The notes under the pieces were generated by a model, which searched no databases, was not told the DNA's origin, and saw nothing but the letters and a program-made list of their open reading frames with translations. From positions 544,001 through 608,000 of the forward strand of contig CAVUDW010000002.1 of assembly GCA_963740355.1 (NCBI GenBank): a stretch of DNA of 64,000 nt, read 5' to 3'. This document shows, one piece after another, positions 1-16,728 of the stretch (its first letter is position 1; the number at the start of each line of letters is the position of its first letter). The position numbers and the translations under genes are program-made. The stretch is from an uncultured Gemmatimonadaceae bacterium (GTDB lineage Bacteria; Gemmatimonadota; Gemmatimonadetes; Gemmatimonadales; Gemmatimonadaceae).

Positions 1-1713
1 AAACGGATCACCGCGCCTGACGTCGTAAGCAACCGAAATCTCGAGCTCGGCCGGGATCTGAGCACCTTCGGCGCCCGCAGTGATCGTGAATCCTCCCCGC
101 ACCTTGGTCAGGCTGAAACGACGCGGCTTCGCGGGAGGGATGACCACGGGCGGGGGATCATTCTCGCCCTTCTTGCGTGGCGTTGGTGAGGGGCGCACCG
201 GTCGCGAAGGATCTGGGGCCTCTGGGAGCGAGAAAAAGTCCGCAAGAATGTCCGGAGCGCTGTCGTCCTCATTCTCTTCGATCATTCGAACGAGCTTCTG
301 AACGCTCGAGCGCACGAAGTTGAGATAACCCGGCCCAAACTTGTACTTGTCCTTAAAGTTTCCGGTGTCGGGCCGCCACTCGGTATGCGCCGGATTCTCG
401 GCATCGCCCAGGAGGTCGGCAAGTGCCTTATCCTTGCACACGACGAGCGATCGAACGCCACGCGCCTTTTCGCCCTTCGCCTCACTGACTATCACGCCCT
501 CCCGGACAAAGACGGGCCGGCCGCTATCGTACGCCGCGTCCCGAATCAGGAATACGTCGAAGTGCGAGTGACGTTCGTCTGCGAACTTGGGCCGAACAAC
601 AATCGGAACCCTCAGCGCAACTGGATCGCCAGCGTCAAGCGAGGCTCGCACCCGAGTCTTGGACTCTTCATCGAGCATTGCTTCGTTCCACTTTGGGCTA
701 TTGTTCTGGTCGGGAGGACCACAAAGGACAGCGGACCGCCCCGCATCCGAGAAGGCGAACCGAGTAAGGTTGACCAGCGGCTCCAGTTCTCGTCGATCAT
801 CCGCGTCGAGCCGTGATATCTCTCCGTCGAGTGAATCACGATTCAGCGTCATAGTACCCGCTGGATCCGTGATCTCAATTTCTAGTTCGCCAGCCATAAG
901 GCAGTAGAACCAGTCACGAATTGCCGCGTCGACCAAAGCTGCCTTCGTAATGTCGTCATCATACCAAGGCACGACCAACGACAGTCCTGGTTCATCGCGC
1001 CGCTTAAGGCGGAAAGTCTCGCGGAATTTTGCGATGAGGTCGCGATCGTCCGACGGCGCCGTAATCATGCCATCTGCGAGAACGACCTTCGATCCGAGAT
1101 AACCATCGGGAACGTGATAGCCCTCTGACGTCCTGTGCGACTTCAAGATGCATCGGCCCAGCAGGAGCGACTGGCGATCGCTTTCGCGAATAGTCCAACC
1201 GACAAACGCACTGCCTTTGCTAGCGCGAGGGAAGACGAATTTCCCGATCCCCCACCGTCCGCGACGGCCCCCGTCCGATTTGGCATTTTCGCCCTCGGCG
1301 CGGAAGAAAGCGAAGAACCCATTTCGCGTACCCTCGATCCGGTGCCACTGGAGCGGGTCGCCTTCGAGCCCCGTCGTTCCGAAATCCTCAAAGGTCAGGA
1401 ACTGACAAGGCTTCGTAATGTCGGGACGCCGGTTGGGCTGGATGCCATTGCCTGCAGCATCCAGATGCGGTCGCAATTTGCCAAAGAGGGCCGACGCTTT
1501 GGTCGCTGACGCTGCCCACTCTGGCCCAGAGATCAGGATCCGGACCTTGGCCATTCCGCTGCCTACGCGCGCATCCATCGTATTTTGGACGCCTTCCCGA
1601 ACTAACGCTTCCGCAGAATTTCGGATTGCTTCCGTGGCGAAGAACTCACCGCTGATCGGGTCGCGGGTGGTGTCGTCGGGCTGCTTCTTTTTAAAAGACC
1701 AATGAGCCGACAT
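1..1713 (-). CDS. Divergent GHKL (HATPase/MORC-like) ATPase, partial (>571 aa, runs off left edge; absent from ORF track)
   Basis: My translation from ATG 1713 stays open to base 1: MSAHWSFKKK...EALVREGVQNTMDA (ExxxNxxDA), FEDFGTTGL (DxGxG-like), GRRGRWGIGKF (G-rich lid), later LGDAENPAHTEW and a Pro-rich linker. Confidence 0.8.
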   Translation of the reverse strand, partial: MSAHWSFKKKQPDDTTRDPISGEFFATEAIRNSAEALVREGVQNTMDARVGSGMAKVRILISGPEWAASATKASALFGKLRPHLDAAGNGIQPNRRPDITKPCQFLTFEDFGTTGLEGDPLQWHRIEGTRNGFFAFFRAEGENAKSDGGRRGRWGIGKFVFPRASKGSAFVGWTIRESDRQSLLLGRCILKSHRTSEGYHVPDGYLGSKVVLADGMITAPSDDRDLIAKFRETFRLKRRDEPGLSLVVPWYDDDITKAALVDAAIRDWFYCLMAGELEIEITDPAGTMTLNRDSLDGEISRLDADDRRELEPLVNLTRFAFSDAGRSAVLCGPPDQNNSPKWNEAMLDEESKTRVRASLDAGDPVALRVPIVVRPKFADERHSHFDVFLIRDAAYDSGRPVFVREGVIVSEAKGEKARGVRSLVVCKDKALADLLGDAENPAHTEWRPDTGNFKDKYKFGPGYLNFVRSSVQKLVRMIEENEDDSAPDILADFFSLPEAPDPSRPVRPSPTPRKKGENDPPPVVIPPAKPRRFSLTKVRGGFTITAGAEGAQIPAELEISVAYDVRRGDPF

Positions 1714-1851
1714 TGCGAAATTTGACTTCGTTTGCGTGCGTGCAGCTGTGAACGACCGGATGATGGTCGCTGTACACAATCAGCTGGAGGGAAGGCATGC
1801 CGTCGCAGACGGTTACACAGACGCTACTCTGCGATCATTTCTGAGCTACGC

Positions 1852-2076
1852 TCAAAGTACCTTGCGCTTGACCTTCATTCGCTGCTTCTGTCCTCCCGCA
1901 TTGTGTCGCGCCGAAATTATCAAGTGTGCGGTATGAGCAAATTCTGTTGCAGTCTGGGCGCCGTTCACCGCAGATCGATTCAGATACTCTAGGATCTCGT
2001 CCGGTGTAAGCGCTTGAGCGCCGCTCAACAGCGGATCCAGGACGAAGAAGTTGCGAATCCTTCGAATTAGCGTCAC
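1852..2076 (-). CDS. Small hypothetical protein (74 aa), basic C-terminus
   Basis: The GTG start overlaps the TGA of the upstream gene (GTGA, 2073-2076) and is preceded by AAAGGGGGG, which suggests translational coupling. Confidence 0.55.
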   Translation of the reverse strand: MTLIRRIRNFFVLDPLLSGAQALTPDEILEYLNRSAVNGAQTATEFAHTAHLIISARHNAGGQKQRMKVKRKVL

Positions 2077-3023
2077 GTTCCCCCCTTTATGAGTTGACCG
2101 TTCGCAGTCGAAATTGTGAGTCTATCGAATAGCGTGGAATATACCTGCGCCAGATGTTCACTGATTGCTTTCATGCTGTCAACGTGCCTTCCATCCAATA
2201 CGCGGCCCGAACGGGATGTCAGAAATAGCAATCCGATCAAATCCTTCCGATCGCCCATCCAACCGACGAGAGGAGCGACTGCAAGTGCCTTAATGTCGTC
2301 GGGAAAAAGCCTATCGTTCTGAGTCATGACATACGCACCTTTCCGAGTCGCTGCAGCCAGATCGGGAATGAAAATGACGCCTTGGCATGGCACGTCTCCA
2401 GATCTAAAGAAGTTGGGAATGCCTTGATCAATCGGGATGGGCTCGCTTGTCGCGGATCGCGCTCGATTCAGTTTGCTGGAGCGTCCGAAGGTCACATACT
2501 GCGTGATCGTGCTTGGCCGCGATTTGTCGACAACCGCAATTCGGACGGCGCAGCCCGTCGTTTCGTCACCCGCCAGCCGACTGAAATGATTGGCAATCGA
2601 CTCACAGATTCCGTTAGAGTAGTCCAGAAGATGTTTGCGCTCATGCGGTGATATTTCAGCCTGTGCGCGAGGCGCCGCTGACTGGCGTTCGAACAAGTCT
2701 ACGATCATATCTCGCGAAGCAGACATGATGAGATGCATGTCTTTCTTCAGGGCGACAGAGCGTCGTGTGCGATTTCGAATCAGAAAGAAAACTGCGCTCA
2801 AAACCGTAATGGCAACTATGAAGCTGAATACGAACAAGTAGCGAGTGGGGAGCGTCACAGCCGCAGGCAACGAATCTGGCCACCAAAAGGGAGTGCCGAG
2901 TACAGGAAGGCCCAAAATTGCTGGGACCACCTGCGCACGCAGCCGGCTGAAAAATCCGCGCATCCCCACATTCCACGAACTCTCCCCGTCAATCCAGTGC
3001 GTTACATCATTCTTAGCAGGCAT
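2073..3023 (-). CDS. Membrane protein with about two N-terminal TM segments and a GAF-like C-terminal domain
   Basis: Hydrophobic segments VVPAILGLPVLG and YLFVFSFIVAITVLSAVFFLI; the C-terminus KALAVAPL...LIGLLFLTS...HVDSMKAISEHLA matches the GAF strand/helix pattern. Confidence 0.6.
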   Translation of the reverse strand: MPAKNDVTHWIDGESSWNVGMRGFFSRLRAQVVPAILGLPVLGTPFWWPDSLPAAVTLPTRYLFVFSFIVAITVLSAVFFLIRNRTRRSVALKKDMHLIMSASRDMIVDLFERQSAAPRAQAEISPHERKHLLDYSNGICESIANHFSRLAGDETTGCAVRIAVVDKSRPSTITQYVTFGRSSKLNRARSATSEPIPIDQGIPNFFRSGDVPCQGVIFIPDLAAATRKGAYVMTQNDRLFPDDIKALAVAPLVGWMGDRKDLIGLLFLTSRSGRVLDGRHVDSMKAISEHLAQVYSTLFDRLTISTANGQLIKGGT

Positions 3024-3185
3024 CAAGTGTTTCTAGGTCCGAGCGGCGCGTAAAGCTTCGAGTTCGGGGCATAGTAGCCGGAAGTAAACCGGAACTGCTG
3101 CTCGAAAGAGCGCGGCCGCACACGGGACGTCAAGTGTCCAGAGTGCTACACCGCGACAGTAGCGGCGCGGGACGCAGCTGTCGAA

Positions 3186-4444
3186 CTAGTCCGTGTAGGT
3201 TACTGCAAGCGCCCAGGGAAGCTTGGAAATGACCCCAAGTAGCGGCAAGCGCTCATGTGGCCACGCCGAAACGCAGGATCGTGCGCATCTGCACGAGGTT
3301 GTACGCGGCGTTCGTGGAGGCGAACACCCTTCGCCCGTGGCGTACCCCCGGTGGTGCAGTTTCCGTAGCCCGCCAATGGTCTTGGCCCACCCGCACACTT
3401 CCTCGACGAGCTTCCGCTTCACCTGACTGATCGCGTAGCCGGCATGGCGCGTCGTGATCATCGATGGCACTCTTGGCCTCGCGGGAATGGAGGTTATGCG
3501 CGACCGGCGGGGTGATGCAACACGCGCGCGTGGCCGCGACAAAGGCTGGACGGTCATAGTTTTTTTCTCCGCTCAGCGTCAATCGTCGCTGCCGGGCGGG
3601 TATGCATGCCGAGCATGGCGACGGCCGCATCCGGTTCCGCGTCGTAGCTTGGCGCGCAGACATCCGTCGCCACGATCAGCCCATGCCGGTTGTCAATCGG
3701 CACACTGCCGAGATCCCCGAGAATTCTCGCCGTCCTGTTGCGCTTGCGAACAAAGGCGCGCCTCGGGAACCGGCATCGACTGATGGCTCGCGCTCGCGCG
3801 CTTTTCCTTCCGGATATTGAACGTCGGATTCTTCGGATCGCCATCCGACGGGAGCGGAGTCGGATCGTCCTACGGCCGCAGACTCTTGCGACTCGCCCAC
3901 TAGTCGAGCAGCATCTCGGAGACGGTGAAGTCCTCGTGCGGGAGCAACCGTCGCTCGTCCGCGGCACGCGGCAATTCCGCCATAAAGGCGTCGGCGATGT
4001 GCCCCGCGATCAGGCGATTCCGATTTCTCCTGAACACCGCCGGGCCCCAAGTGGCGTCATCGGGACTAGTGCCGACGAACCAGCGGAACAGTAGGTTGCA
4101 ATTGAGTTGCTCCATCAGCTGCCGCTCGCTCGGCACGGGAGACGGCACCTGCAGGAGTGGGGCGCGGAGCAAGCGCTCGGGAGGGATCGACGGGCGGCAA
4201 ATCTTCGAGTAGAGCGCCTCGAATTTGGGCGACTGCGCCCCTTAGGATCGGGTTGACGAGCGCATGGATCGTCCGGAGAGGATGGTCGGAGGGAATGCGG
4301 TCTTCGGCCCACACATAGCTGGAAAAGGTCGGCTGCGTCGCGTCGGCCCACTCATGGCTCGGTGCCAGAAAGAGTCGACAACAACTGCTGGAAGCCTCAG
4401 GCCAGCGCGGCGGAAATCGGGCAACTTTTTCAGCAACCTGCTAA
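3186..4444 (-). mobile_element. Degenerate IS5/IS1182-type insertion sequence
   Basis: End sequence TTAG|CAGGTTGCTGAAAAAG (minus strand) at about 4424-4444 plus transposase fragments. The other end near 3186-3210 is only weakly recognisable. Confidence 0.7.
3253..4355 (-). pseudogene. Frameshifted IS5/IS1182-family (DUF772 + DDE) transposase
   Basis: Fragments lie in different frames: EDRIPSDHPLR, SERQLMEQLNCNLLFRWFVG, DNRHGLIVATDV, TTRHAGYAISQVKRKLVEEVCGWAKTIGGLRK, AAYNLVQMR. Several frameshifts and stops. Confidence 0.85.
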
Positions 4445-6219
4445 GACAGTGCTTTTCTGCGATCGAAGAAGTGCCGAAGTAGAATCACTGGTATCGGTTC
4501 GACTCCGAGTGTTTCAGCGCTCAGCTCATGAGTGACTCCATCGAAAACTTGTGCTGAGGGAACTGCAAGAACTAGCCCCGCGTCTTTCAGCTTTTGCTCA
4601 TCCGCATCCCACGCAATCAACAAGTGAATATCCTCGAGATACTTCTTTTCTGTCGCCAGATCCGCGATCAGTGAATCAAGCGAATACTTGAACTCAATAA
4701 GCGTTCTCAGCGGAGCTTGGCCGTCATTCAGGTAGTGCGTGTGAGCATCGTAGCGGTGGCCATATCCAGTCGTCAGCGTTCGGTATCGCGTGAGAATGCC
4801 GGCGCCTATCAACTCGTGAAAAATTGCGGCCACGGCGGCTTCCTGAGCGTCTGGGGCTTTTCCGTAGCGCAACTTCGGCTCCGCAAGGTCGACCAAGCCC
4901 TCTGCTCGCGCCCACTCAGCGGCGATGATGCTCTGCCGTTCCGCCTTCGAGATTTTTGGAGCAGATGGCTCAATTGTTTCGTCACCCTGATATCGCGCAA
5001 TTTCCTCGAACTTCAGGAACATGTCCCTTACCGCAGCCTGAAGCTTTCGCACCTGAGTGTAGTGCAAAGATTTCCGCCCGAGATCAAATTTCAGCTTCTT
5101 TGACTCGACCATGAAGAAGCAGCGCTTGTAGTACGCCGGGTATCTGCCTCCCTCAGGTATTGGGAGACTCATAGCCGTGGGCATTCCCTTCGTGGCAACA
5201 AAGACACCGCTTCTGAAGAGAACGTCGTCACTGCTGGTATCTGTCGGTTCCGGAAGCAGAAGCGTGTCTCGGGACAGGATTTTGAAGGCGTCGTTCTCGG
5301 GGAACATCACGCCATATACGCAAACCTCCCAAGACCCCTCTTTCACTGTTTGCGTGTGCCAAACAGTCTTCGATCCAACAAGCTTCTTTCTAAGTGCTAC
5401 GTCCGACATTGGCACAAAAGCGTTGCGTACGTCTTGGAGAGCAATCCGATTGCTTGTCTTGACGAGAAGATGTGGGGCGTGAAAGTGAGCTTCAGTTGAC
5501 TCCAGAGAGTTTTCGCCTGGTAAGGCCAAGTCAATGTAGGCATCGAACTCAGATAGCGTCTCCGGATCGTACAAGTTCGTGGTTACGCCAACCGCGGTGC
5601 GGGTGCGAATGAGGTACCGTAGCTCGCTCTTGGTCATCGCGAAAAGATTGCGGTCATTCGACGACGGCATAACATGCGATACTGTTATCCGAGAGAACGA
5701 GTTCATCGGATACGCCTTGTCGCAGATAGCAATTGACGCTGGGTAGGCGCGTTCTTCAGAGAAGGGTGCGTAGACTGGGCGGGGAACGCTGGAGTCGTCT
5801 GTTGCGAGCCATTGCTGGGCATTTGCAACCCTTCCGCCAGCTATCGCACTGCCAACGGTACGGCTTTCAATTTCAAATTCGTTTCCTGAAAAGATTGCAT
5901 ACGTCAGTCCGACACCCTTCTCTCCAACCTCCTTCGTGTCACCGTCTTTATCGCCTCCACCAGGTGCTAGTACTTCTTGGATCTTGCTTGCGGGAATTCC
6001 GATACCGTTATCTGTGACTTGAATCAGTGATTTGCTGGCGTCGATCCTTACGTGAACGAAGAAGGGTCCAGTTACGCCGCCGTCCTTCGCACGGGTAATC
6101 GCGTCACGCGAATTCTGGAGCATTTCTGCCAACAGATCCCAGTAGTGGTGGTAGCTGTCCCTAAGGCCGCGAAGTTCTTTCTTGATCGCGCGATCGTTTC
6201 GCTCATTCAGAAAATCCAT
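4441..6219 (-). CDS. GHKL ATPase fused to a C-terminal PD-(D/E)xK-like nuclease; candidate defence protein
   Basis: EMLQNSRDA, TDNGIGI and GEKGVGL motifs; C-terminal QEAAVAAIFHEL...YDA...IEFKY...DIHLLIAWD; GAGGA RBS before the ATG. Confidence 0.8.
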   Translation of the reverse strand: MDFLNERNDRAIKKELRGLRDSYHHYWDLLAEMLQNSRDAITRAKDGGVTGPFFVHVRIDASKSLIQVTDNGIGIPASKIQEVLAPGGGDKDGDTKEVGEKGVGLTYAIFSGNEFEIESRTVGSAIAGGRVANAQQWLATDDSSVPRPVYAPFSEERAYPASIAICDKAYPMNSFSRITVSHVMPSSNDRNLFAMTKSELRYLIRTRTAVGVTTNLYDPETLSEFDAYIDLALPGENSLESTEAHFHAPHLLVKTSNRIALQDVRNAFVPMSDVALRKKLVGSKTVWHTQTVKEGSWEVCVYGVMFPENDAFKILSRDTLLLPEPTDTSSDDVLFRSGVFVATKGMPTAMSLPIPEGGRYPAYYKRCFFMVESKKLKFDLGRKSLHYTQVRKLQAAVRDMFLKFEEIARYQGDETIEPSAPKISKAERQSIIAAEWARAEGLVDLAEPKLRYGKAPDAQEAAVAAIFHELIGAGILTRYRTLTTGYGHRYDAHTHYLNDGQAPLRTLIEFKYSLDSLIADLATEKKYLEDIHLLIAWDADEQKLKDAGLVLAVPSAQVFDGVTHELSAETLGVEPIPVILLRHFFDRRKALS

Positions 6220-6374
6220 CTTGGTCCTCGAGAAGTTATGCCGTGCGGTCGTTGATTGTATGATAACAATACGAAGGGCGTCGGGCGGTAGAAACTATGG
6301 AACGCAGCTTTGCGGGTCGCGACTACTCAGGTTCGAGATAATCTGGCCGACGGGCTAGATCTGCGTCACGGGCG

Positions 6375-7496
6375 TCACCCGAGCATCCTAGCCAACGGAA
6401 CGGCGCCGAACGTGCCTATATTGTCACGCGCGCCAACCGCCAGCGCACCAGTGCCTCGGAAGCGAAGGAGCGTCGCCACATGCGCGGAGAAGGGGGGAAG
6501 TACCGCCGCCAGCGCATGCCCGCGCCCAACCAGCGCTCGCACCGTTTGCATCAACGCCGAGCAATCCCCGACCTCGAACGACACCACCTGTCCATCCGCC
6601 CCAAACACAGGCAGACACCCACCGCCATCAGATGAGACAGTCACCCGATCCACTGGCGCCCCCGATTCCCAGTAGATCTCCAGCGCATCCGCCGCCGAAT
6701 ACGCATCCTCGCCGTCCGCGACTGGAAAATCCGTGATGTCGATGTAACACCCGAACTCCTTCACCAACGCGATCGCTTCGTGAAAGAGCGCTTTCCGTCG
6801 ATTCACATGCGTCGGATTGAACACCCGCGGCGGAATCTCCGAGACCGTCAGCGCCTCGCGAATCAGCTCCAGCCCGCGCAGCCCGTCGCCCACGTGCAGG
6901 TGCAGGATCCCCGCCTTGCCCGTCATCAATCCGGCCACGTGTGCATCGGCCGCGATCCGCAGCAGTTCCTGCAGCGTCGGCTGTGATGATCGATGATCCG
7001 AGATCGCCACTTCGCCCACGCCAATGATGCAATCGATGTTCACTATGTCGCTGCGCACCGAGCCGGTGAGCGTCGTCAGCGGCAGGTGATACCCACCGGT
7101 GTGGCACCAGGCATTGATCCCCTGTGCCCGTAGTGCACGCACACCGGCCACCAGTTCGGCGGTGGATCGCGTCACATCGTCGGTGCCCAGCACCCCGACC
7201 ACCGTCGTCACGCCGGCCTTCCGATACGACTCCGCCAGCGGTGCTGGCACCTTCGACGCCGGCCCCGCCTCACCACCACCACCGGTGATGTGGCAATGCC
7301 CATCGATCAGCCCCGGAATCACCCGCCGCCCTTCGAGGTCGATCTCCTCCACACCCAGGTACGGCGGAAACGACGGCCGCTCCGTCCCCATGTAGAGAAT
7401 CGTGCCGCCACCAATCAGGATGTGCTGGTGCCCCAGGTGCTCCGGCGCGTACACATCGCCGTTGAGCAGGAGAGTCATTGAACTCGTCGTCGTCAT
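6375..7496 (-). CDS. iadA: Isoaspartyl dipeptidase (beta-aspartyl peptidase)
   Basis: PGLIDGHCHITGGGGE, GVTTVVGVLGTD, GEVAISDHRSSQP, HVGDG, PTHVNR, SSDGGG; adjacent to cyanophycin genes. Confidence 0.93.
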   Translation of the reverse strand: MTTTSSMTLLLNGDVYAPEHLGHQHILIGGGTILYMGTERPSFPPYLGVEEIDLEGRRVIPGLIDGHCHITGGGGEAGPASKVPAPLAESYRKAGVTTVVGVLGTDDVTRSTAELVAGVRALRAQGINAWCHTGGYHLPLTTLTGSVRSDIVNIDCIIGVGEVAISDHRSSQPTLQELLRIAADAHVAGLMTGKAGILHLHVGDGLRGLELIREALTVSEIPPRVFNPTHVNRRKALFHEAIALVKEFGCYIDITDFPVADGEDAYSAADALEIYWESGAPVDRVTVSSDGGGCLPVFGADGQVVSFEVGDCSALMQTVRALVGRGHALAAVLPPFSAHVATLLRFRGTGALAVGARDNIGTFGAVPLARMLG

Positions 7497-7552
7497 GCGC
7501 CCAAGCCTACCGCTCCCGCCGCGCCGCCACCACCGGCACGAGCGGTCGCTGT

Positions 7553-8011
7553 CGCTTCGCCAGCGCCGTTAACAGCAATGGGGGCGGGAGGCCACGGAGC
7601 TCACGGAGTAGCTCCCGATGCCACCACTCGCGCTTCGCTACCGCCGTTAACAGCGATGGGGGCGGGAGGCCACGGAGCTCACGGAGTAGCTACGGTTGCC
7701 ACCTGCCGTGCAGCGCGATCCATCCTTGACGAGGAAAAGAGGGAACAGCGGAATAGCAGTCCCCGTCAATCTCGATGGCGGCGAAACGCGACGCCTCGTG
7801 AATGGAGCTACTCCGTGAGCTCCGTGGCCTCCCGCCCCCCTGCAGTTCAGGATGCATCGCTCGCGCGTGGAGTCCTCGTGTCCTACCGCCCACCTGCAGT
7901 TCACACTGCCCGCGAAACGCGACGCCTCGTGAATGGAGCTACTCCGTGAGCTCCGTGGCCTCCCGCCCCCCTGCAGTTGACGATGTCTCGCTCGCGCATG
8001 GAGCCCTCGTG
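7553..8011. repeat. Four copies of a 34-bp core (GGGGGCGGGAGGCCACGGAGCTCACGGAGTAGCT), two forward then two inverted
   Basis: Forward copies at 7580-7613 and 7658-7691 (78-bp period); reverse-complement copies at 7806-7839 and 7937-7970 (131-bp period). Confidence 0.92.
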
Positions 8012-8101
8012 CCGGCGCGGATGTAGTCCGGACACAGGCATGCCAACACTAGTCAGCCGCTCCGGCTCCCTGATCTCGCCCGTCCCCCGTACCTTGCGAC
8101 C

Positions 8102-8938
8102 ATGCCGTCTCCAACCAACCGCAAAGGCTGGCTCGTCCCGATCGGCGGGAAACTGACCGACGCCAACATCCTCGCTCGGTTCATCGAGCTCTGTGGGCCA
8201 CGGAATCCGGTCATCGCCATCATCCCCACCGCCTCGGAAGAGTCGGACATGGGGGCGTGGTACGAGAAGCAGTTCGCCAGGCACGGCGTCAAATACGCCC
8301 GCGCCCTCAACTTCCAGCGCCGATCCGACTGCGACGACCGCGACTGGACCGCGCAGCTCGAAGATGCCGACGGCGTATTCATCACCGGCGGCAACCAGCT
8401 CCGGTTGACCACCATCATGGGTGGAACCCCAGCGGCGCAGATCCTCCACGACCGCTTCTACGCCGGAATGCCAGTGGCCGGCACCAGCGCCGGGGCCGCT
8501 GTCATGTCCACCCACATGATCGCCGGCGGCGAGGAAGGCCCAACCCCTCGCGCAGGCATGGTGACGATGGCGCCAGGATTCGGCCTCACCCGCGACTTCA
8601 TCGTCGACCAGCACTTCCGCCAGCGCGACCGACTCGGACGGCTGCTTACCGCGCTGTCCTACAACCCCGCGCTTTTGGGTCTGGGCGTGGACGAAGACAC
8701 CGCCGCCTTCATCAGCCCGGACGACGAAATCGACGTCATGGGCACCAGCGCGGTCACGGTGATCGATACTGCGGATGTGGAGTTCTCCTCCATGCATGCA
8801 GCGGAACCGTACGACACCGTCACGCTGCTCGGCATCAGGATGCACCAACTCGCTGAAGGCGCCGGATTCAACCTCCGCACCCGCAAGGCGCACGGCAAGA
8901 ACGTCGTCACCCTCCAGCACACCGACCCGGCCGCATGA
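8102..8938 (+). CDS. cphB: Cyanophycinase (peptidase S51), no signal peptide
   Basis: LVPIGG, IPTAS, FITGGNQLRL, GTSAGA (catalytic Ser), DQHFRQRDRLGRL, GVDEDTA; ATGA overlap with cphA. Confidence 0.95.
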   Translation: MPSPTNRKGWLVPIGGKLTDANILARFIELCGPRNPVIAIIPTASEESDMGAWYEKQFARHGVKYARALNFQRRSDCDDRDWTAQLEDADGVFITGGNQLRLTTIMGGTPAAQILHDRFYAGMPVAGTSAGAAVMSTHMIAGGEEGPTPRAGMVTMAPGFGLTRDFIVDQHFRQRDRLGRLLTALSYNPALLGLGVDEDTAAFISPDDEIDVMGTSAVTVIDTADVEFSSMHAAEPYDTVTLLGIRMHQLAEGAGFNLRTRKAHGKNVVTLQHTDPAA

Positions 8939-11820
8939 AGATTCTCGATCGCAACGTCTACGTCGGCCCGAGTCACTACGCCCACTTCCCGGTCATCCGG
9001 CTGGAAGTGGACCTCGGCGTGCTCGAGGCCTGGCCGACCATGCGATTGGGACACGGGTTCATCGACGCGCTGGTCGAACGACTCCCCGGCCTGAAGGAAC
9101 ACGGCTGCAGCTACGGTGAGCCCGGTGGATTCATCCGACGCATGACCGAGGACGAAGGCACCTGGCTTGGCCATGTCTTCGAACATGTCGTGATCGAGAT
9201 GCAGAACACCGCCGGTATCGCCGTCACCTTCGGCAAGACCCGTTCTGCCGGCCGTGATGGTGTCTACGACGTGGCGTTCGAATACGAACAGGAAGATGTC
9301 GGGATCGAAGCGGCCGACCTCTCGCTGAATCTGCTGCACTCGTTGCTGCCGGCTGAACTTCGTCCAGACGACTACGACGCCAGCTTCGACTGGGAAGAAA
9401 GTCGTGACACGTTCATTCGGTATGCACAGCGACGCGCGCTCGGCCCGAGCACCGCGTCCATCGTGCACGCCGCCGAGAAGCGCGGCATCCCATGGATCCG
9501 CCTCAACGAGCAGTCGCTGATCCAGCTTGGATACGGCTGCCATCAGCAGCGCATCCAGGCCACCATCACCGGCCGCACGTCGCACATCGCCGTCGAACTG
9601 GCGAGTGACAAGGAAGAAACCAACAAGATCCTCGCCAACCTCGGCCTGCCAGTGCCGAAGCAGCGGCTGGTGCAGACCGCCGAACGGGCCGTGAATGCGG
9701 CGGAACGGATCGGCTTCCCGGTCGTGCTCAAGCCGTACAACGGCAATCATGGTCGCGGCGTCTCGATCAATCTCAGCGACAAGGACGAGATCCGCGAAGC
9801 CTTCGCGCGTGCGCAGGAACACTCGCGCAGCGTGATCGTCGAGACGTTCATCACCGGCCATGACCATCGCATGGTGGTGATCAATGGTGAGCTGGTCGCC
9901 GTCAGCAAGCGTGAGCCAGGCCATGTCGTCGGCGACGGCGAGCACACCATCGAGCAGTTGGTGGCGATCGTGAACTCCGATCCGCGACGCGGCATCGGAC
10001 ACGAGAAGGTGTTGACGCGAATCGAGCTCGATGCACAAGCCACCGGCCTGCTGACCAAGCTTGGCTATACCGCGCAGACGATTCCGCCGAAGGATGAAGT
10101 CGTGTATCTGCGGCTGACCGCTAACCTCAGTACCGGCGGTACAGCCCGCGACATGACCGACCTCGTGCACCCCGACAACGCCGAGATGGCGGTGCGCGCG
10201 ATCAAGGCGATCGGGCTCGACATCGGTGGCGTGGACTTCCTCACGCCGGATATCACGCAGAGCTACAAGGACATCGGCGGAGCGATCTGCGAGATCAACG
10301 CGGCGCCAGGTTTCCGCATGCACATGGCGCCCAGCGACGGGCGCCCGCGCGATGTCGCGGGCAAGACCATCGACATGTTGTTCCCGGCCGGAAGCCCGAG
10401 CACCATTCCGATTGCAGCCATCACCGGCACCAACGGCAAGACGACCACCTCGCGCATGCTGGCGCACATCCACAAGCTGGCTGGCAAGCGTGTCGGATTG
10501 ACCACCACCGACGGCGTGTACGTCGATGGTCAGCGCACTGTAGTGGGCGACATGACGGGTCCTACCGCCGCGCGCATCGTGCTCAGCGATCCGAATGTCG
10601 AAGTGGCAGTGCTGGAGACAGCCCGCGGTGGACTGCTGCGTGCTGGCATGGCGACCCGACACGTGGACGTCGGCGCCGTGCTCAACGTGCGCCCCGATCA
10701 TCTGGGCCAGAAGAACATCGATACCCTCGAGCAACTCGCCGAGATCAAGCGGACGGTGATCGAGATCGCGCGTGATACGGCGGTGTTGAATGCCGATGAT
10801 CCGCTCACGCTCCGCATGGCGGCGTATACCGAGGCGAAGCATGTCTGTTACGTGACGCTGAACCCGGATCACCAGCTGGTGCGCGAGCATATCCGCGCCG
10901 GCGGTCGTGCCATCGCGCTCGAGAATGGCATCAACGGCTCGATGATCACGATCTACGATCACGGTGCCCACATTCCGTTGCTCTGGACGCACCTGATTCC
11001 GGCCACGATCGAAGGCAAGGCGTTGCACAACGTGCAGAACGCGATGTTCGCCGCCGCAATGGCATTTGCGATGGGTGTGCGTCTCGAGGACATCCGGCAC
11101 GGCCTGCGCACCTTCGACACCAGCTTCTTCCAGGCACCGGGACGTCTCAACGTCTACGAGCAGCATCCGTTCCGCGTGTTGTTCGACTACGGTCACAACG
11201 CCGACGCCGTCGAGCAACTCTGTCAGCTGGCGAACCGGCTCGATGTGAAGGGCCGTCGCATCTGCGTGCTCTCGGCGCCAGGCGACCGTCGGGATCAGGA
11301 TATCGTGGCCATCGCTGACGTCGCGGCGGCCGCTGTCTTCGATCACTACATCTGCCGTCGTGACGACAGTCGGCGTGGTCGAAGTGACGACGAAGTGCCG
11401 CGGATGCTCGCCGAGGCGCTGCTCGCACGCGGCATCGGGAAGGACCGCGTCGAGATCGTCGTCGACGAGCAGGAGGCGATCGAGACTGCGCTGCGCAAGG
11501 CAGAACCGGGTGACCTGGTACTGATCTTCGCCGACGCTTTGGCGCGCGGCTGGAAGCAGATCACGCAGTTCAAGCCCGACTTCGACCGCGCGTCACTCGT
11601 CTCGCCGAAGCGGCAGGCGCCGCAGACCATCACCCCCGATGCGATGGAGTTGGCGGACGACAGCGTACCGCCGCCGGCGCCGCCGAAGGTGGTGGTCGAG
11701 GCGCGTCCTGTCGCACCGGCTCGTGTCCCGATCGCGCACACTGATGCTGAAGGGCATGGCTCCACGACCATCGTCAGGGACGATCGCGGCGTGTTTCTCG
11801 CCCGCGAAGCGAACGACTAG
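8935..11820 (+). CDS. cphA: Cyanophycin synthetase CphA1 (N, ATP-grasp and Mur-ligase domains)
   Basis: HGCSYGEPGGF...GHVFEH, LGPST, KPYNGNHGRGV, ANLSTGG, EINAAPGFRMH, TGTNGKTTT, ETARGG, DYGHN. Confidence 0.97.
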   Translation: MKILDRNVYVGPSHYAHFPVIRLEVDLGVLEAWPTMRLGHGFIDALVERLPGLKEHGCSYGEPGGFIRRMTEDEGTWLGHVFEHVVIEMQNTAGIAVTFGKTRSAGRDGVYDVAFEYEQEDVGIEAADLSLNLLHSLLPAELRPDDYDASFDWEESRDTFIRYAQRRALGPSTASIVHAAEKRGIPWIRLNEQSLIQLGYGCHQQRIQATITGRTSHIAVELASDKEETNKILANLGLPVPKQRLVQTAERAVNAAERIGFPVVLKPYNGNHGRGVSINLSDKDEIREAFARAQEHSRSVIVETFITGHDHRMVVINGELVAVSKREPGHVVGDGEHTIEQLVAIVNSDPRRGIGHEKVLTRIELDAQATGLLTKLGYTAQTIPPKDEVVYLRLTANLSTGGTARDMTDLVHPDNAEMAVRAIKAIGLDIGGVDFLTPDITQSYKDIGGAICEINAAPGFRMHMAPSDGRPRDVAGKTIDMLFPAGSPSTIPIAAITGTNGKTTTSRMLAHIHKLAGKRVGLTTTDGVYVDGQRTVVGDMTGPTAARIVLSDPNVEVAVLETARGGLLRAGMATRHVDVGAVLNVRPDHLGQKNIDTLEQLAEIKRTVIEIARDTAVLNADDPLTLRMAAYTEAKHVCYVTLNPDHQLVREHIRAGGRAIALENGINGSMITIYDHGAHIPLLWTHLIPATIEGKALHNVQNAMFAAAMAFAMGVRLEDIRHGLRTFDTSFFQAPGRLNVYEQHPFRVLFDYGHNADAVEQLCQLANRLDVKGRRICVLSAPGDRRDQDIVAIADVAAAAVFDHYICRRDDSRRGRSDDEVPRMLAEALLARGIGKDRVEIVVDEQEAIETALRKAEPGDLVLIFADALARGWKQITQFKPDFDRASLVSPKRQAPQTITPDAMELADDSVPPPAPPKVVVEARPVAPARVPIAHTDAEGHGSTTIVRDDRGVFLAREAND

Positions 11821-11841
11821 TGTTGCAACGCAGGACCTGAT

Positions 11842-13548
11842 ATGACGCGCCCTCCGCGCGAACCGGACCTCGAGTCGGGTTATCCCTCACCGACCATCGT
11901 GGATTCGCGCCGTCTGATGGGCCCCAACCTGATGCACTCAGGGCTGGGTGCTGTGCTCGATGTTTCGCTCGATGATGCTGCAACGGACCACAACGCCGAG
12001 CTGCTGCGTGTGTGGCACGAGCGTGTGTCTGTGCTGGCGGACGCGCTCGATTGGCCTTACGCCGAGACGGTGCAGCGCGTCTACCCGGGGGGCGCGAGCC
12101 TCTTCGTTCACGCGCCGATCGATCAGTTGATGACTGCAACGGAAGTCTGCGAGTCCGCCTGGGTGTATGCGGAATCGCGGCTCGCTGGCGCGGAATCCGC
12201 GAAGCTGACCGACCCCGTTGCGGCATTGAAGGCGTTTTCGCACGCCGAAGCAGTGCGGACGCCAGGCACCCGGCGCAGACTGCTCGAACTCTGGGACGAA
12301 GCGCAGCGGCTCGGATTGAACTGCACCTTTGATGAAACCCACGCCTTCGTCGGGACTGGCGTTGGCGCCACGGGGTGGCTGATCGATGACATCCCACCCA
12401 TCGATTCGATCGACTGGCTGAGCGTACGCGACATCCCGATCGTGCTCGTCACCGGGTCGAACGGCAAGACCACCGTGGTGCGCATGGTGGCGGCGATGGC
12501 GCGCGCTGCCGGTCACACGGTCGGCTACACCTGCACCGATGGTGTCTGGATCGGCGACATGCAGGTCGAAAGTGGCGATTGGTCAGGGCCTGCAGGAGCG
12601 CGTCGGGTGGTTCAGGACCCAGCAGTGACGCTGGCGGTGCTCGAGACGGCTCGCGGTGGCTTGCTGCGGCGTGGACTGGCGGTGCAGCGCGCCTCAGTCG
12701 CTGCGATCGTCACGCTCTCCCCCGACCACTTCGGCGATTATGGCATCAATGACCTAAGGACACTGGCCGAGGCGAAGCTGGTGGTTGGTCGGGCGGTATC
12801 GGAGACCGGGGCGCTGGTCTACAACGCCGAGGTGCCTGCGCTGGTGGAGGCTGTTGCTGGCTATCAGGGTCGCCGCGTGCCGGTGCGCGCCGACGACGGC
12901 GGCCTTTCCCAGGCCGACATCGCGGCGATCCCTGCAACGCTGGGCGGCACGGCACGCCACAACGTGCTCAACGCGGCCTTCGCGTTCGCCATCGCCACGG
13001 AGTTGAAGCTCGGCGAGGCCGCTGTGGGGGCGCTGAAGGTTTTTGGCGCCGGCTCCGCCGACAACATGGGTCGGCTCATGGTGCGGAAGGTTGGTGGCGT
13101 AACGGTCGTGATCGACTACGCCCACAATCCGCAGAGCGTCGCCGCGCTCATCGACGCGACCCGCCAGATTCAGGCGACCCGGCGCGTGATCTCACTCGGC
13201 ACTGGTGGTGACCGGGACGATGTCGCGCTGCACGCAATCGCGAAGGCCGCGTTGGACTCCGGCATCATCGATCGGTACATCGCGAAGGAGATGCCGAAAT
13301 TCCTTCGCGGCCGCGCATCAGGCTCCATCAGCGGTGTTCTGCTCGATGCCCTGCGCCAGCTCGGCGTGCCGAACGAGCGGATGGAAAGTGCACCGGACGA
13401 CATGAGCGCCGTTCGCTCAGCATTGCAGTGGGCGCACAGTGGTGACCTGCTTTTGCTCTCCGTGCATGATCATCGCGACGATGTGCTCGCTCTGATTGCA
13501 AAACTTGCAGAGAACGGCTGGCACGCGGGCGACGATCTCACGGCGTAG
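11842..13548 (+). CDS. CphA-like protein with N and Mur-ligase domains only (no ATP-grasp)
   Basis: DSRRLMGPN N-terminus, then VTGSNGKTT, ETARGGLLRRG, DHFG, DYAHNP and GDRDD. No ATP-grasp motifs; 568 aa. Confidence 0.85.
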   Translation: MTRPPREPDLESGYPSPTIVDSRRLMGPNLMHSGLGAVLDVSLDDAATDHNAELLRVWHERVSVLADALDWPYAETVQRVYPGGASLFVHAPIDQLMTATEVCESAWVYAESRLAGAESAKLTDPVAALKAFSHAEAVRTPGTRRRLLELWDEAQRLGLNCTFDETHAFVGTGVGATGWLIDDIPPIDSIDWLSVRDIPIVLVTGSNGKTTVVRMVAAMARAAGHTVGYTCTDGVWIGDMQVESGDWSGPAGARRVVQDPAVTLAVLETARGGLLRRGLAVQRASVAAIVTLSPDHFGDYGINDLRTLAEAKLVVGRAVSETGALVYNAEVPALVEAVAGYQGRRVPVRADDGGLSQADIAAIPATLGGTARHNVLNAAFAFAIATELKLGEAAVGALKVFGAGSADNMGRLMVRKVGGVTVVIDYAHNPQSVAALIDATRQIQATRRVISLGTGGDRDDVALHAIAKAALDSGIIDRYIAKEMPKFLRGRASGSISGVLLDALRQLGVPNERMESAPDDMSAVRSALQWAHSGDLLLLSVHDHRDDVLALIAKLAENGWHAGDDLTA

Positions 13549-13672
13549 TCGCCCCGCGGAACGCCGTTGATTTCACGCGCATTTCGGCACCGACTTTTGC
13601 CGCTTCGCTGACATGTGCAATCGCGATGTTTTTCGTCTCGCACGAGACTGGTTCGAGACGTAGCTTCGTGCC

Positions 13673-15529
13673 ATGAAAAATGTGATTCTCACACAACTCA
13701 AGGCGCTGCCGTTCGTGGCAGGGCTTCCGGATGCGCAGCTCTGGCGTTTCGCCCAGTCACTCGAGCCGCATTCCTTCGCCACCGATGATGTGTTCTTCAG
13801 CGAAGGCGATGAGCGATCGATGTTCGCGCTGGTCGTAACCGGTGGCGTGGCCATCGAGAAGACTGCAGGTGGCCGTACCACACGCCTCGTCACGATGGGG
13901 CCCGGTGAGGCCATCGGCGAAGGCATCCTGTTGGACGATACGCGCCACGGCACCACGGCTCGCGCCGTGATCGCCGGTGAGCTGCTGATCCTGAGCAAGG
14001 AGAAGCTGGCCGACATCGTGAAGGACAACCCGCATCTGTACGCCGGGCTTGTGAACCGCGCCGCCCGCGCCATCGCCGGTCGCCTGCGGATCGCCGACGC
14101 CACCCTGGTCGGTCGTGGTCGGACCCTCGGTTTTGGCAGTCGTCGCATGCGCGTCGAACACGATCTGCTTGGGGAGCGGGAAGTGCCGGACGAAGCGCTC
14201 TATGGGGTGCAGACGCTGCGCGCGGCCGAGAATTTCCCGATCACCGGCGTGCCGCTCCGCGAGTTTCCTGAGATCATCGTCGCGTTAGCTGCGGTCAAGA
14301 TCGCTGCCGCTGAAGCCAATCGAGAACTCGGCCTGCTGCCCGACAACGTGGCGGACGCCATCGTGCGTGCGGGCGAGGAGATTCGCGCTGGACGGCACCA
14401 CGAACACTTCATCGTGGACATGATCCAGGGGGGTGCCGGCACCAGCACCAACATGAATGCGAACGAGGTGATCGCGAATCGCGCTCTCGAGATCCTCGGC
14501 CGGTCGCGTGGGACCTATGACGTCGTGCACCCGAACGAACATGTCAATCGCAGCCAGAGCACGAACGACGTGTATCCGACATCGATTCGCATCGCGCTTC
14601 ACATGGCACTCGATGTCCTGCGCGATTCGCTGAAGGATCTGTGCGGCGCGATGGATGCGAAGGCGGTCGAGTTCAGTGACCTGATCAAGATGGGCCGCAC
14701 CCAGCTGCAGGACGCGGTGCCGATGACGCTCGGTCGTGAATTCAAGGCGTGGGCACACACGCTGATGGAAGACGTCGATCGCCTTGGCGAAGCACAGGCG
14801 CTGATGCGCGAGATGAACATGGGCGCGACCGCGATCGGCACCGGCATCACGGCTTCGGAGGAATTCACCGTGTCGGTGCGCAAGCACCTGTCGGAAGTGA
14901 CCGGGCTGGTGATGATCACGGCGCCCGACCTGATCGAGGCCACCAGCGACACCGGTGCTTTCGTGCAGCTGAGTGGCGTGTTGAAGCGCACGGCCACCAA
15001 GCTCTCGAAGATCTGCAACGACCTGCGTTTGCTCAGCTCTGGCCCGCGCGCTGGCTTCGGCGAGATCAACCTGCCGGCCATGCAACCCGGTAGCAGCATC
15101 ATGCCGGGCAAGGTGAATCCGGTCATCCCTGAAGTCGTCAATCAGGTGTGCTTCAACATCATCGGCGGCGATGTCACGGTGACGATGGCGGCCGAGGCAG
15201 GGCAGCTGCAGCTCAACGTCTTCGAGCCGATCATCGCCTACAAGCTGCTGGGCGGCATCCACGAGCTGACGCACGCCATCCAGGTTCTGAAGGACAAGTG
15301 CATCGTCGGCATCACGGCCAATGCCGACCGCATGCGGTACTACGTCGAGCATTCCATCGGCGTCGTCACCGCGTTGTTGCCGGTGATCGGCTACGAGAAG
15401 GCGACCGGTGTGGCCAAGGAAGCGCTGGCGACGGGCCGGGGCGTGACCGAGATCGTGCTCGAGCGCGGGTGGCTGACGCGTGAGCAGCTCGATGACGTGC
15501 TGCGTCCGGAGTCGATGGCGGGACGGTAG
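13673..15529 (+). CDS. aspA: Aspartate ammonia-lyase with an N-terminal cNMP-binding (Crp-type) domain
   Basis: Residues ~1-150 are cNMP-like (FSEGD, VVTGGVAI, GPGEAIGE). They are followed by RVEHDLLGE, YGVQTLRA, QGGAGTSTNMNANE, GRTQLQDA and GSSIMPGKVNP. Confidence 0.92.
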   Translation: MKNVILTQLKALPFVAGLPDAQLWRFAQSLEPHSFATDDVFFSEGDERSMFALVVTGGVAIEKTAGGRTTRLVTMGPGEAIGEGILLDDTRHGTTARAVIAGELLILSKEKLADIVKDNPHLYAGLVNRAARAIAGRLRIADATLVGRGRTLGFGSRRMRVEHDLLGEREVPDEALYGVQTLRAAENFPITGVPLREFPEIIVALAAVKIAAAEANRELGLLPDNVADAIVRAGEEIRAGRHHEHFIVDMIQGGAGTSTNMNANEVIANRALEILGRSRGTYDVVHPNEHVNRSQSTNDVYPTSIRIALHMALDVLRDSLKDLCGAMDAKAVEFSDLIKMGRTQLQDAVPMTLGREFKAWAHTLMEDVDRLGEAQALMREMNMGATAIGTGITASEEFTVSVRKHLSEVTGLVMITAPDLIEATSDTGAFVQLSGVLKRTATKLSKICNDLRLLSSGPRAGFGEINLPAMQPGSSIMPGKVNPVIPEVVNQVCFNIIGGDVTVTMAAEAGQLQLNVFEPIIAYKLLGGIHELTHAIQVLKDKCIVGITANADRMRYYVEHSIGVVTALLPVIGYEKATGVAKEALATGRGVTEIVLERGWLTREQLDDVLRPESMAGR

Positions 15530-15540
15530 CCATACCTGGC

Positions 15541-15581
15541 CATCTGTACTATCTGACTAGTCCGGTCAGCTAGTACAGATG
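15541..15581. terminator. Hairpin between convergent aspA and vapC
   Basis: CATCTGTACTA...TAGTACAGATG inverted repeat with an inner CTGAC/GTCAG pair. Confidence 0.6.
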
Positions 15582-15603
15582 TTCAGGAAACATCGACCGT
15601 CGG

Positions 15604-15990
15604 TCACCATGCCTCGAGCTCGAGGCCGATAATGTCGGAGAAGTCGCTCGCGTTCATGGTCACGAGCCTTGCGCGATGTACGATTGCCTGTGCGGCGATC
15701 ATCCGATCCAGCAGCTTCCTTCGCGAATAGCCCGCCTGCGCCACGATGGCACTGTGCGCGGCTGCGGCGGAATCATCGAATGCCAGCACAGGAACCGCAG
15801 CAAGGATCGCGTCCAGTCGGGCGCGGCGAATCGGTGCATCTGCCGGATGGCGGTACACACCCCCTTCAAGTTCGACGCGCGTCACGATCGACATCACGAT
15901 CGCGTCGTCCAGCGCCGCGATGCGCGACGCGATTGTCTGGTCGCCATCGCGCAGTTGAATGGCGATGTTCGTGTCGATCATGCATGCCAT
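15604..15990 (-). CDS. vapC: PIN-domain toxin
   Basis: MIDTN, SIVTRVEL, DRMIAAQA, LVTMNASDF; 128 aa, downstream of the antitoxin. Confidence 0.92.
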   Translation of the reverse strand: MACMIDTNIAIQLRDGDQTIASRIAALDDAIVMSIVTRVELEGGVYRHPADAPIRRARLDAILAAVPVLAFDDSAAAAHSAIVAQAGYSRRKLLDRMIAAQAIVHRARLVTMNASDFSDIIGLELEAW

Positions 15991-15993
15991 GGC

Positions 15994-16233
15994 TCAGAGG
16001 CCACTGCGTTCAGGAATACCCTCGTCATCCCGCTCATCACGCTCCGTGACCGCGGGCAATGCCGCCAGACGTGCGAGCATCTCCGGAATCGTTGTCGCGG
16101 CCGGGTAGATGGTCATGACGTCGCCGGATCGGACCAAAATCAGTTCGACGTCATCGCCGAACGCCACGTCTTTCGGCAGCCGAATCGCCTCGCTGTTCCC
16201 GCTACGAAATGTGCGACTACGCGCGATGCTCAT
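15994..16233 (-). CDS. vapB: AbrB/MazE-fold antitoxin
   Basis: FRSGNSEAIRLPK motif; ATG at 16233 with a GGAG RBS. Confidence 0.9.
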   Translation of the reverse strand: MSIARSRTFRSGNSEAIRLPKDVAFGDDVELILVRSGDVMTIYPAATTIPEMLARLAALPAVTERDERDDEGIPERSGL

Positions 16234-16251
16234 CGAAGGACTCCAAGTTGG

Positions 16252-16265
16252 ATATACAAGTATAT
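16252..16265. promoter_or_regulatory. Probable VapBC autoregulatory operator
   Basis: Perfect palindrome ATATAC-AA-GTATAT in an AT-rich patch just upstream of vapB. Confidence 0.65.
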
Positions 16266-16326
16266 ACATTGAGTAGTGCCTGACCGCAACCGCGAAATGT
16301 CACGCCGGTGAATCGACCTCCCCCGG

Positions 16327-16728
16327 CTACACCGCGAACAAATCCCTCTGCACCGGCGCCGTCTTGGGATCCCCGGCACGATCGCGCCACACCCCATCGC
16401 GCGCCGTACGCCCGCGCGTGAAGGCCGTCGCATCGTTCTCGCGCAGCAGCCCATCGTCCACATCGCTCTGCAGGTACCCACCCGTGAGCGCCATGCGCAC
16501 CACGATCGCCGTGTCGCAGGCCGGGTTGCTGCAGGGATAGACGGTGCTCGCAACAGCCACGGTTGTTCCCGACGCTTCCTCAGCCTCGCCCGCCTGCACC
16601 CGCCATCCACGGCGCACTTTCCGCGTCGGGCCGAGGTAAGGCGCCGACCAGCACTCCGGACACCGCGGTGTGGGCGGTGTGGCGGGGGCGAAGGCGGCGG
16701 GCCGGCGGGTCGGCGTGCGGTCGGACAT
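16327..16728 (-). CDS. Hypothetical protein with a possible Zn ribbon
   Basis: Two cysteine pairs, CPEC and CSNPAC. Confidence 0.5.
   Translation of the reverse strand: MSDRTPTRRPAAFAPATPPTPRCPECWSAPYLGPTRKVRRGWRVQAGEAEEASGTTVAVASTVYPCSNPACDTAIVVRMALTGGYLQSDVDDGLLRENDATAFTRGRTARDGVWRDRAGDPKTAPVQRDLFAV

Follow-up and report, generated by a model that had tools for sequence, protein, structure and literature searches.

A conserved, apparently undescribed N+M relative of cyanophycin synthetase encoded beside cphA1 in Gemmatimonadota and Xanthomonadales

We analyzed a cyanophycin gene cluster of an uncultured Gemmatimonadaceae bacterium, contained in a window of 64,000 nucleotides (nt; assembly GCA_963740355.1, contig CAVUDW010000002.1, positions 544,001 to 608,000), with a focus on a paralog of the cyanophycin synthetase CphA1 that is encoded directly downstream of cphA1. 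A six-frame list of open reading frames (ORFs), together with Pfam and NCBIfam scans, places five genes at positions 6375-15529 of this window: iadA on the reverse strand and, divergent from it on the forward strand, cphB, cphA1, the paralog, and a gene encoding an aspartate ammonia-lyase (AspA) fused to a cyclic nucleotide monophosphate (cNMP)-binding domain. A preliminary description of the locus, made from the DNA letters alone, had proposed this same gene order, and we confirm it. We also agree with that description that the cluster has no arginine catabolism gene, as no such family was matched among the window ORFs scanned, and that the host is not a cyanobacterium: the paralog has its best homologues among proteins from Gemmatimonadaceae metagenome-assembled genomes (MAGs), supporting an assignment to Gemmatimonadota. 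An Rfam scan of the whole window at the gathering threshold returned no matches, and a sigma-70 scan found no sigma-70-like sites in 6000-16500.

The core of the cluster, cphA1 with cphB and iadA, is ordinary and has already been published. The cyanophycinase gene cphB (8102-8938, + strand) encodes 278 amino acids with an S51 peptidase domain (PF03575, Peptidase_S51, 78.8 bits) and scores 237.7 against the TIGR02069 equivalog model, which has a cut-off of 126.6. Its stop overlaps by 4 nt the start of cphA1 (8935-11820, + strand), which encodes a three-domain cyanophycin synthetase of 961 amino acids. This protein has the canonical N+G+M architecture, with matches to PF18921 (Cyanophycin_syn), ATP-grasp, Mur_ligase_M and Mur_ligase_C, and scores 1140 against TIGR02068 (cut-off 850). 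Its N domain carries the zinc-type motif C58...H80xxE83H84 in the form given in PMC9262961, where a Cx19HxxEH primer-generating site is reported for the N domain of ~83% of CphA1s. In the survey by Sharon & Schmeing (2023, PMC10206079), cphA1 and cphB cluster in 81% of genomes, and cphA1, cphB and iadA occur together in 37 of 231; as in our window, the three genes of these published clusters lie within 5 kb of one another. The main text of the survey contains no mention of aspartase, ammonia-lyase, Mur ligase, truncated or Gemmatimon.

The paralog (11842-13548, + strand) is 568 amino acids long, and a gap of 21 nt separates it from the cphA1 stop codon. Pfam detects only Mur_ligase_M and Mur_ligase_C in this protein. 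Its M domain (residues 198-568, 12433-13548) is that of a Mur-ligase-type ATP-dependent amide ligase and shares 34% identity with CphA1 residues 491-864; in a profile-profile comparison using hhalign, it aligns to CphA1 positions 488-866 with a probability of 100 and an E-value of 2.5e-72. The N-terminal part (residues 1-197, 11842-12432) has no Pfam match even at E<=10 and was not recovered by sequence in the hhalign comparison, which aligned the M domain only. The ESM Atlas provided a weak lead for this region, with a value of 0.79 to a PF18921 cluster.

Structure prediction identified the N-terminal part as a CphA-type N domain. An AlphaFold 2 (AF2) model of the full-length paralog, built from 55 family members, is confident, with a predicted local distance difference test score (pLDDT) of 92.3 and a predicted template modeling score (pTM) of 0.92. 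In a Foldseek search of the PDB with this model, the top eight matches are all CphA1, the best being 7wae_A (E 4e-31, template modeling score relative to the query (TMq) 0.79, 887 alignment columns); MurE structures reach a TMq of <=0.52. Since a TMq of 0.79 exceeds the share of the protein that the M domain alone makes up (348 of 568 residues, 61%), the N-terminal part must superpose on CphA1 as well. We also modeled residues 1-197 in isolation on 75 sequences (pLDDT 91.3). Foldseek ranks 1-13 for this model (E-values 1.2e-4 to 2.2e-3) are all N domains of CphA1 or CphA2, and no other kind of PDB chain gives a significant match; two unrelated chains with TMq <=0.25 follow at ranks 14-15, and a further CphA2 at rank 16. 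The N+M label that the preliminary description gave the paralog is therefore correct by fold comparison, with an N domain that sequence methods miss.

This N domain differs from that of most CphA1s in that it lacks the HxxEH primer-generating site. The equivalent helix reads T100-E-V-C/N-E104, with no His, and all 55 paralog sequences share T100 and E104. Searching with a profile built from this N domain yields 864 clusters (50% identity) at E<=1e-3. Among the 150 matches listed, none is longer than 757 amino acids and the best-matching stretch begins within the first 81 residues, so the paralog-type N domain is not found in CphA1-length proteins, with the limit that many of the matches are shorter than 500 amino acids and may be fragments.

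We detected no ATP-grasp G domain in the paralog: it has no Pfam or NCBIfam match to one, the hhalign alignment is confined to CphA1 488-866, and in the AF2 secondary structure the N domain passes straight into the M domain, with 568 amino acids leaving no room for a G domain. The TIGR02068 score of 277.7 bits is correspondingly far from the CphA1 cut-off of 850. Compared with CphA1 of known structure (PDB 7LG5, 7WAE, 7LGM and 7LGN), the paralog shares the N-domain fold, the M domain, the ATP/Mg and DH residues and the predicted N-M arrangement, but lacks the ~320-residue G domain and HxxEH, and has M-P in place of DD before the RGR motif. CphA2 (PDB 7TA5, 8FXH/8FXI), as described in PMC10273328 and PMC9974463, is similar to the paralog in being a reduced CphA1 derivative of ~570-640 amino acids with a non-catalytic N domain, in an organism that also has CphA1. 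According to the same two sources, CphA2 polymerizes beta-Asp-Arg and is cyanobacterial only, whereas the paralog occurs in Gemmatimonadota, Xanthomonadales and Holophagales. The two proteins have been reduced in opposite ways: CphA2 combines an active G domain with an inactive, truncated M domain (PMC10273328), while the paralog lacks the G domain and keeps its M domain in full. The paralog is thus a CphA1 derivative minus its ATP-grasp domain, a mirror image of CphA2, and its alignment to CphA1 fits an origin by internal deletion, though it is weak in that region. With MurE and other Mur ligases, the paralog shares the central and C-terminal domains, the P-loop, and the DH and DxxHN motifs; it is separated from MurC-F and Mpl by its CphA-type N domain and by scores below the cut-offs of the Mur NCBIfam models (for example, 64 versus 257 for murE).

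A scan of species-representative genomes found relatives of the paralog in at least 568 genomes, and we kept the best 80 loci for an analysis of synteny. In 75 of the 77 assessable loci, cphA1 lies directly 5' of the paralog on the same strand; three more loci are cut by contig ends. The two exceptions are one locus with a 1.4-kb gap (L019) and one with a 46%-identical cphA on the opposite strand (L080). The cphA1 stop and the paralog start mostly overlap or lie less than ~30 nt apart. Further upstream, cphB precedes cphA1 in all 60 assessable loci, and iadA precedes cphB in 36 of 53, divergently in 10 and co-directionally in 26. The preliminary description had taken co-conservation of the paralog with cphAB as a point on which its proposal could fail, and on this point the paralog holds up. 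The loci span three phyla, with 12 in Pseudomonadota (Xanthomonadales, including Rhodanobacter, Dyella, Dokdonella, Arenimonas and Rudaea), one in Holophagales, and the others in Gemmatimonadota. Identity to the window proteins co-varies between the paralog and CphA1 (Spearman 0.74, n=64), and a quick maximum-likelihood tree built from the M domains of 55 paralogs and 15 CphA1s divides the two groups by a single branch, with a Shimodaira-Hasegawa-like approximate likelihood ratio test (SH-aLRT) value of 100.

We considered and rejected a cphA1-paralog fusion suggested by long frames at some loci (for example, L070, L057 and L052), as these frames are in another reading frame in high-GC DNA, and the cphA1 frame is closed by the gene's own stop codon every time. 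Separately, the paralog frame of locus L054 (10001-11716) is interrupted and open only from 10247, and the 3' end of cphA1 in locus L048 (2-531) is frame-shifted; these interruptions may be assembly errors or pseudogenes of the MAGs concerned.

The M domain of the paralog looks catalytically competent from its residues. We aligned 55 paralogs, with identities as low as 39%, and 15 CphA1s, and found that the P-loop (T204, G205, N207, G208, K209, T210 and T211), E268, D295-H296, N328, N374, N377, R411, H428-N429, G456 and R458 (paralog numbering) are at least 90% conserved in both groups, with the same residue in each. These positions include all the expected elements of an active M domain, namely the P-loop K209 and T210, the Mg-binding Glu (E268), the DH motif (D295, H296) and the lid Arg and His (R411, H428). 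In TeCphA1, as reported in PMC9427784, K499, T500 and E558 bind ATP/Mg, and R731 and H748 of the lid contact the phosphates; in SuCphA1, the double mutation D585A/H586A abolished M-domain activity (PMC9262961). When the window was compared with eight related loci, dN/dS of the paralog was 0.157-0.225, against 0.078-0.109 for cphA1 and 0.032-0.062 for aspA, and by this sequence measure the paralog is under purifying selection. At several positions conserved within each group, the charge differs between the paralog and CphA1: R277/A570, R317/E610, D459/R786, D407/Q733 and H542/D867.

The CphA1s encoded next to a paralog end in a shared peptide, [VI]RDxRG[VI]xxxRExxD, which in the window covers residues ~945-961 (11767-11817, + strand). 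We detected it by regular expression in 73 of 76 paralog-linked CphA1s and by eye in 75 of 76, in each case after a variable P/A-rich linker of 40-90 amino acids. Among the CphA1 chains of the PDB, none matches the peptide at E<=10, and a search of a protein collection with CphA1 residues 915-961 recovered the query alone, this query being too short to inform. We regard the peptide as a candidate docking motif for the paralog.

From the architecture, conservation and synteny of the paralog we infer a substrate and a reaction, in a model to which we assign a probability of about 60%. The conserved functional unit is cphB-cphA1-paralog, often with iadA upstream, and aspA is the ordinary aspartase of this lineage. 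The paralog descends from CphA1 and has lost the G domain, the extender of the aspartate (Asp) backbone, but retains the N domain and an intact M domain, the domain with which CphA1 joins arginine (Arg) to each new backbone Asp at its beta-carboxyl. It would then act as an accessory ATP-dependent side-chain ligase, working in trans on the cyanophycin made by the co-translated CphA1, and might load Arg onto Asp residues left bare by CphA1 or attach another amino acid.

Several observations weigh against this model of side-chain ligation in trans. In the comparison with the eight related loci, the evolutionary rate of the paralog is about double that of CphA1. The motif [RK][RE]DD..RGR (808-816), invariant in the 15 partner CphA1s, is K482-[ED]-M-P-x-F-L-RGR in the paralog, where K482 and the following E/D are each present in 55 of 55 sequences, M in 40 and P in 33. 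We take this region to correspond to the amino-acid-specificity DNPR region of MurE. Because M-P replaces the DD before RGR, the incoming substrate may be other than Arg, or may be bound differently. The paralog N domain has neither HxxEH nor sequence similarity to the N domains of CphA1, so that its binding of the polymer is suggested by fold alone, and its arrangement relative to the M domain is a predicted one. Finally, the partner CphA1 retains a complete M domain of its own, which leaves no obvious necessity for a second Arg ligase.

A bolder version of the same idea, which we consider unlikely, makes the paralog itself a third type of cyanophycin synthetase, reciprocal to CphA2: it would dock on the C-terminal peptide of CphA1 to form a two-protein polymerase and, with a specificity pocket altered from DD to M-P, would add a side chain other than Arg or fill bare Asp residues. 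If so, the cyanophycin of Gemmatimonadota and Rhodanobacteraceae would differ in composition from the textbook Asp:Arg ratio of 1:1. To our knowledge, the enzyme types described as making or remaking cyanophycin are CphA1 and CphA2 only, and the widespread, strongly conserved N+M "half synthetase" that soil Gemmatimonadota and Xanthomonadales encode beside cphA1 would be the third such type. Such an enzyme could allow side chains to be loaded independently of backbone extension, an asset in making tailored polyamides, and could alter how cyanophycin composition in non-cyanobacteria is read. We found no description of an N+M paralog in the literature searched, a scope that left out most subscription journals, and the protein is thus apparently an undescribed, conserved variant of the cyanophycin synthetase family.

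The preliminary description had instead read the five genes as one module that takes the polymer to beta-Asp-Arg, then to Asp, and finally to fumarate and NH3, with the cNMP-binding domain as a gate and aspA co-regulated with cphAB. This reading has its attractions: the biochemical logic is sound by established pathway knowledge, aspA lies on the same strand as the paralog and 124 nt past it, and the gap between them has no terminator-like site. The last gene (13673-15529, + strand) encodes a 618-amino-acid protein that is clearly an aspartate ammonia-lyase, with residues 157-616 scoring 728.7 against NF008909 (cut-off 510) and 681.4 against TIGR00839 (cut-off 681.2). It differs from class II aspartate ammonia-lyases in its extra N-terminal cNMP-binding domain of ~150 amino acids, in which PF00027 matches residues 33-118 with a score of 48.1 (cut-off 27.5).

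Comparative genomics does not support the placement of aspA in the cluster. By tblastn with the cNMP and lyase parts, 13 of the 14 close loci (those with a paralog at least 60% identical) have aspA after the paralog, the exception (L011) having a gene for a SEC-C protein there instead. In the 66 other loci, 57 of them with 900 nt or more of downstream DNA, tblastn found no aspA within 10 kb downstream. We scanned 48 of 141 candidate downstream ORFs with Pfam, one each from 46 distant loci and two from L011, and found variable families but no Lyase_1; at the distant loci, the downstream genes include those for DUF885 proteins at seven loci, and for an amidase, CstA and a 3-keto-disaccharide hydrolase at two loci each. 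As a control, the unrelated caa3 oxidase (cox) operon that follows aspA is in the same order in all 10 close loci long enough to be informative, and the adjacency of aspA to the paralog is therefore no stronger than background synteny. Co-conservation of aspA with cphAB, which the module had been taken to imply, thus fails outside the close clade, where aspA was found at none of the 57 more distant loci with enough downstream sequence.

The fusion itself is equally unspecific to the cluster. All 120 listed matches to AspA residues 1-160 combine a cNMP-binding domain with a lyase; 116 have PF00027, PF00206 and PF10415, and the other four, which are shorter or partial entries, lack the fumarase C-terminal domain. 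The matches include Gemmatimonas aurantiaca and G. groenlandica, and the two loci labeled Gemmatimonas in our set (L041 and L049) have no aspA beside the cph genes. Across 117 Gemmatimonadota proteins, strong conservation extends over the cNMP-binding domain and the linker RLRxADATLVGRGRTLGFG (AspA residues 1-156, 13673-14140). The phosphate-binding cassette has the sequence GEGxLLDDxxHGTTAR, and its H92, kept in at least 95% of these 117 fusions, presumably sits where the canonical phosphate-binding Arg of cyclic nucleotide-binding (CNB) domains is expected. We found no description of a cNMP-domain aspartase in the literature searched. The cNMP-AspA fusion is thus the aspartase that Gemmatimonadota, cultured Gemmatimonas among them, ordinarily have, and the "built-in allosteric step" once attributed to the cluster is not specific to it. 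The proposed link from nitrogen storage to ammonia release and entry into the tricarboxylic acid (TCA) cycle is likewise left without comparative support, as aspA follows the cph genes in one narrow clade. AspA could use the Asp released from cyanophycin, but nothing we found ties aspA to the cluster; it is probably just a lineage-specific neighbor of the cph genes, and we consider the five-gene module doubtful. This negative result shows that an attractive biochemical neighborhood may be mere lineage synteny.

A less probable alternative is that the paralog is a non-catalytic subunit, pseudo-enzyme or scaffold, which binds CphA1 or the granule and regulates polymer length or oligomeric state. 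The tight translational coupling of the paralog with cphA1, its faster evolution, and the C-terminal peptide of the partner CphA1 as a possible docking site would all fit such a role, and CphA2 offers a precedent as a protein that keeps an inactive domain for stability (PMC10273328). Against it, the ATP/Mg-binding and catalytic residues of the paralog are all invariant or nearly so across the 55 sequences, which is unexpected for a pseudo-enzyme, and we consider this role improbable. It is very unlikely that the paralog has no connection with cyanophycin and is a Mur-type ligase acting, for example, in peptidoglycan peptide recycling or on another gamma/beta-amide product and hitch-hiking by cphA1: database names such as 'Mur ligase family protein' and 'UDP-N-acetylmuramyl tripeptide synthase' and the Pfam matches to Mur_ligase_M and Mur_ligase_C alone would suggest as much, but its nearest relatives in both sequence and fold are CphA1 M domains rather than MurC-F, its N-terminal domain is CphA-type and not of the kind that binds UDP-N-acetylmuramic acid (UDP-MurNAc), every Mur NCBIfam model scores far under its cut-off, and it stands beside cphA1 across three phyla.

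At the upstream end of the cluster, iadA (6375-7496, - strand) encodes an isoaspartyl dipeptidase of 373 amino acids that is divergent from cphB. Among 11 loci compared, IadA of the window and of four close relatives is 363-375 amino acids long, and distant orthologues are 388-403 amino acids long. The C-terminal ~25 residues of the distant orthologues (DADLVV...RGTFE) are absent from the window protein (3' end of the gene, 6375-6450) and from the four close relatives. Because of this missing C-terminus, the match to TIGR01975, which covers profile positions 2-352 of 389, falls just under the cut-off (325.6 versus 331.25 bits). The dN/dS of iadA is 0.13-0.18, which suggests that the gene is still functional.

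Between iadA and cphB lies an intergenic region of 605 nt (7497-8101), compared with 276-514 nt in four relatives. A repeat search showed that a 28-36 nt repeat occurs in this region in four perfect copies: the + strand carries two as a 78-nt tandem unit and the - strand another two as a 131-nt unit, with 36-nt arms that are 100% complementary. All copies in the 64-kb window lie here, with none expected by chance, and the repeat is present in none of the 80 related loci. It may be an insertion resembling a miniature inverted-repeat transposable element (MITE) or a repetitive extragenic palindromic (REP) element, or a regulatory structure. An ORF at 7578-7949 was rejected as a sixth gene, as it has no family match and no tblastn match in related loci and lies within the repeats.

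Two features flank the cluster. Between aspA and the cox operon, we identified an ORF (15604-15990, - strand) encoding a PIN-domain (VapC-like) protein; as it is absent from syntenic relatives, it is likely a small toxin-antitoxin insertion, whose antitoxin was not identified. Upstream of iadA, positions 1-6300 of the window have a GC content of 55-58%, compared with 62-68% elsewhere, and few ORFs with high GC at third codon positions (GC3). This stretch encodes a 592-amino-acid HATPase_c_3/HSP90-like ATPase (4441-6219, - strand). Used as queries, the ATPase and a 317-amino-acid ORF (2073-3026) are not syntenic in relatives. PADLOC, run on six ORFs (five from the low-GC stretch upstream of iadA and the PIN-domain protein), returned only a marginal match to TmtA (E 1.5e-4). 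The low-GC stretch may be a horizontally acquired island that borders iadA.

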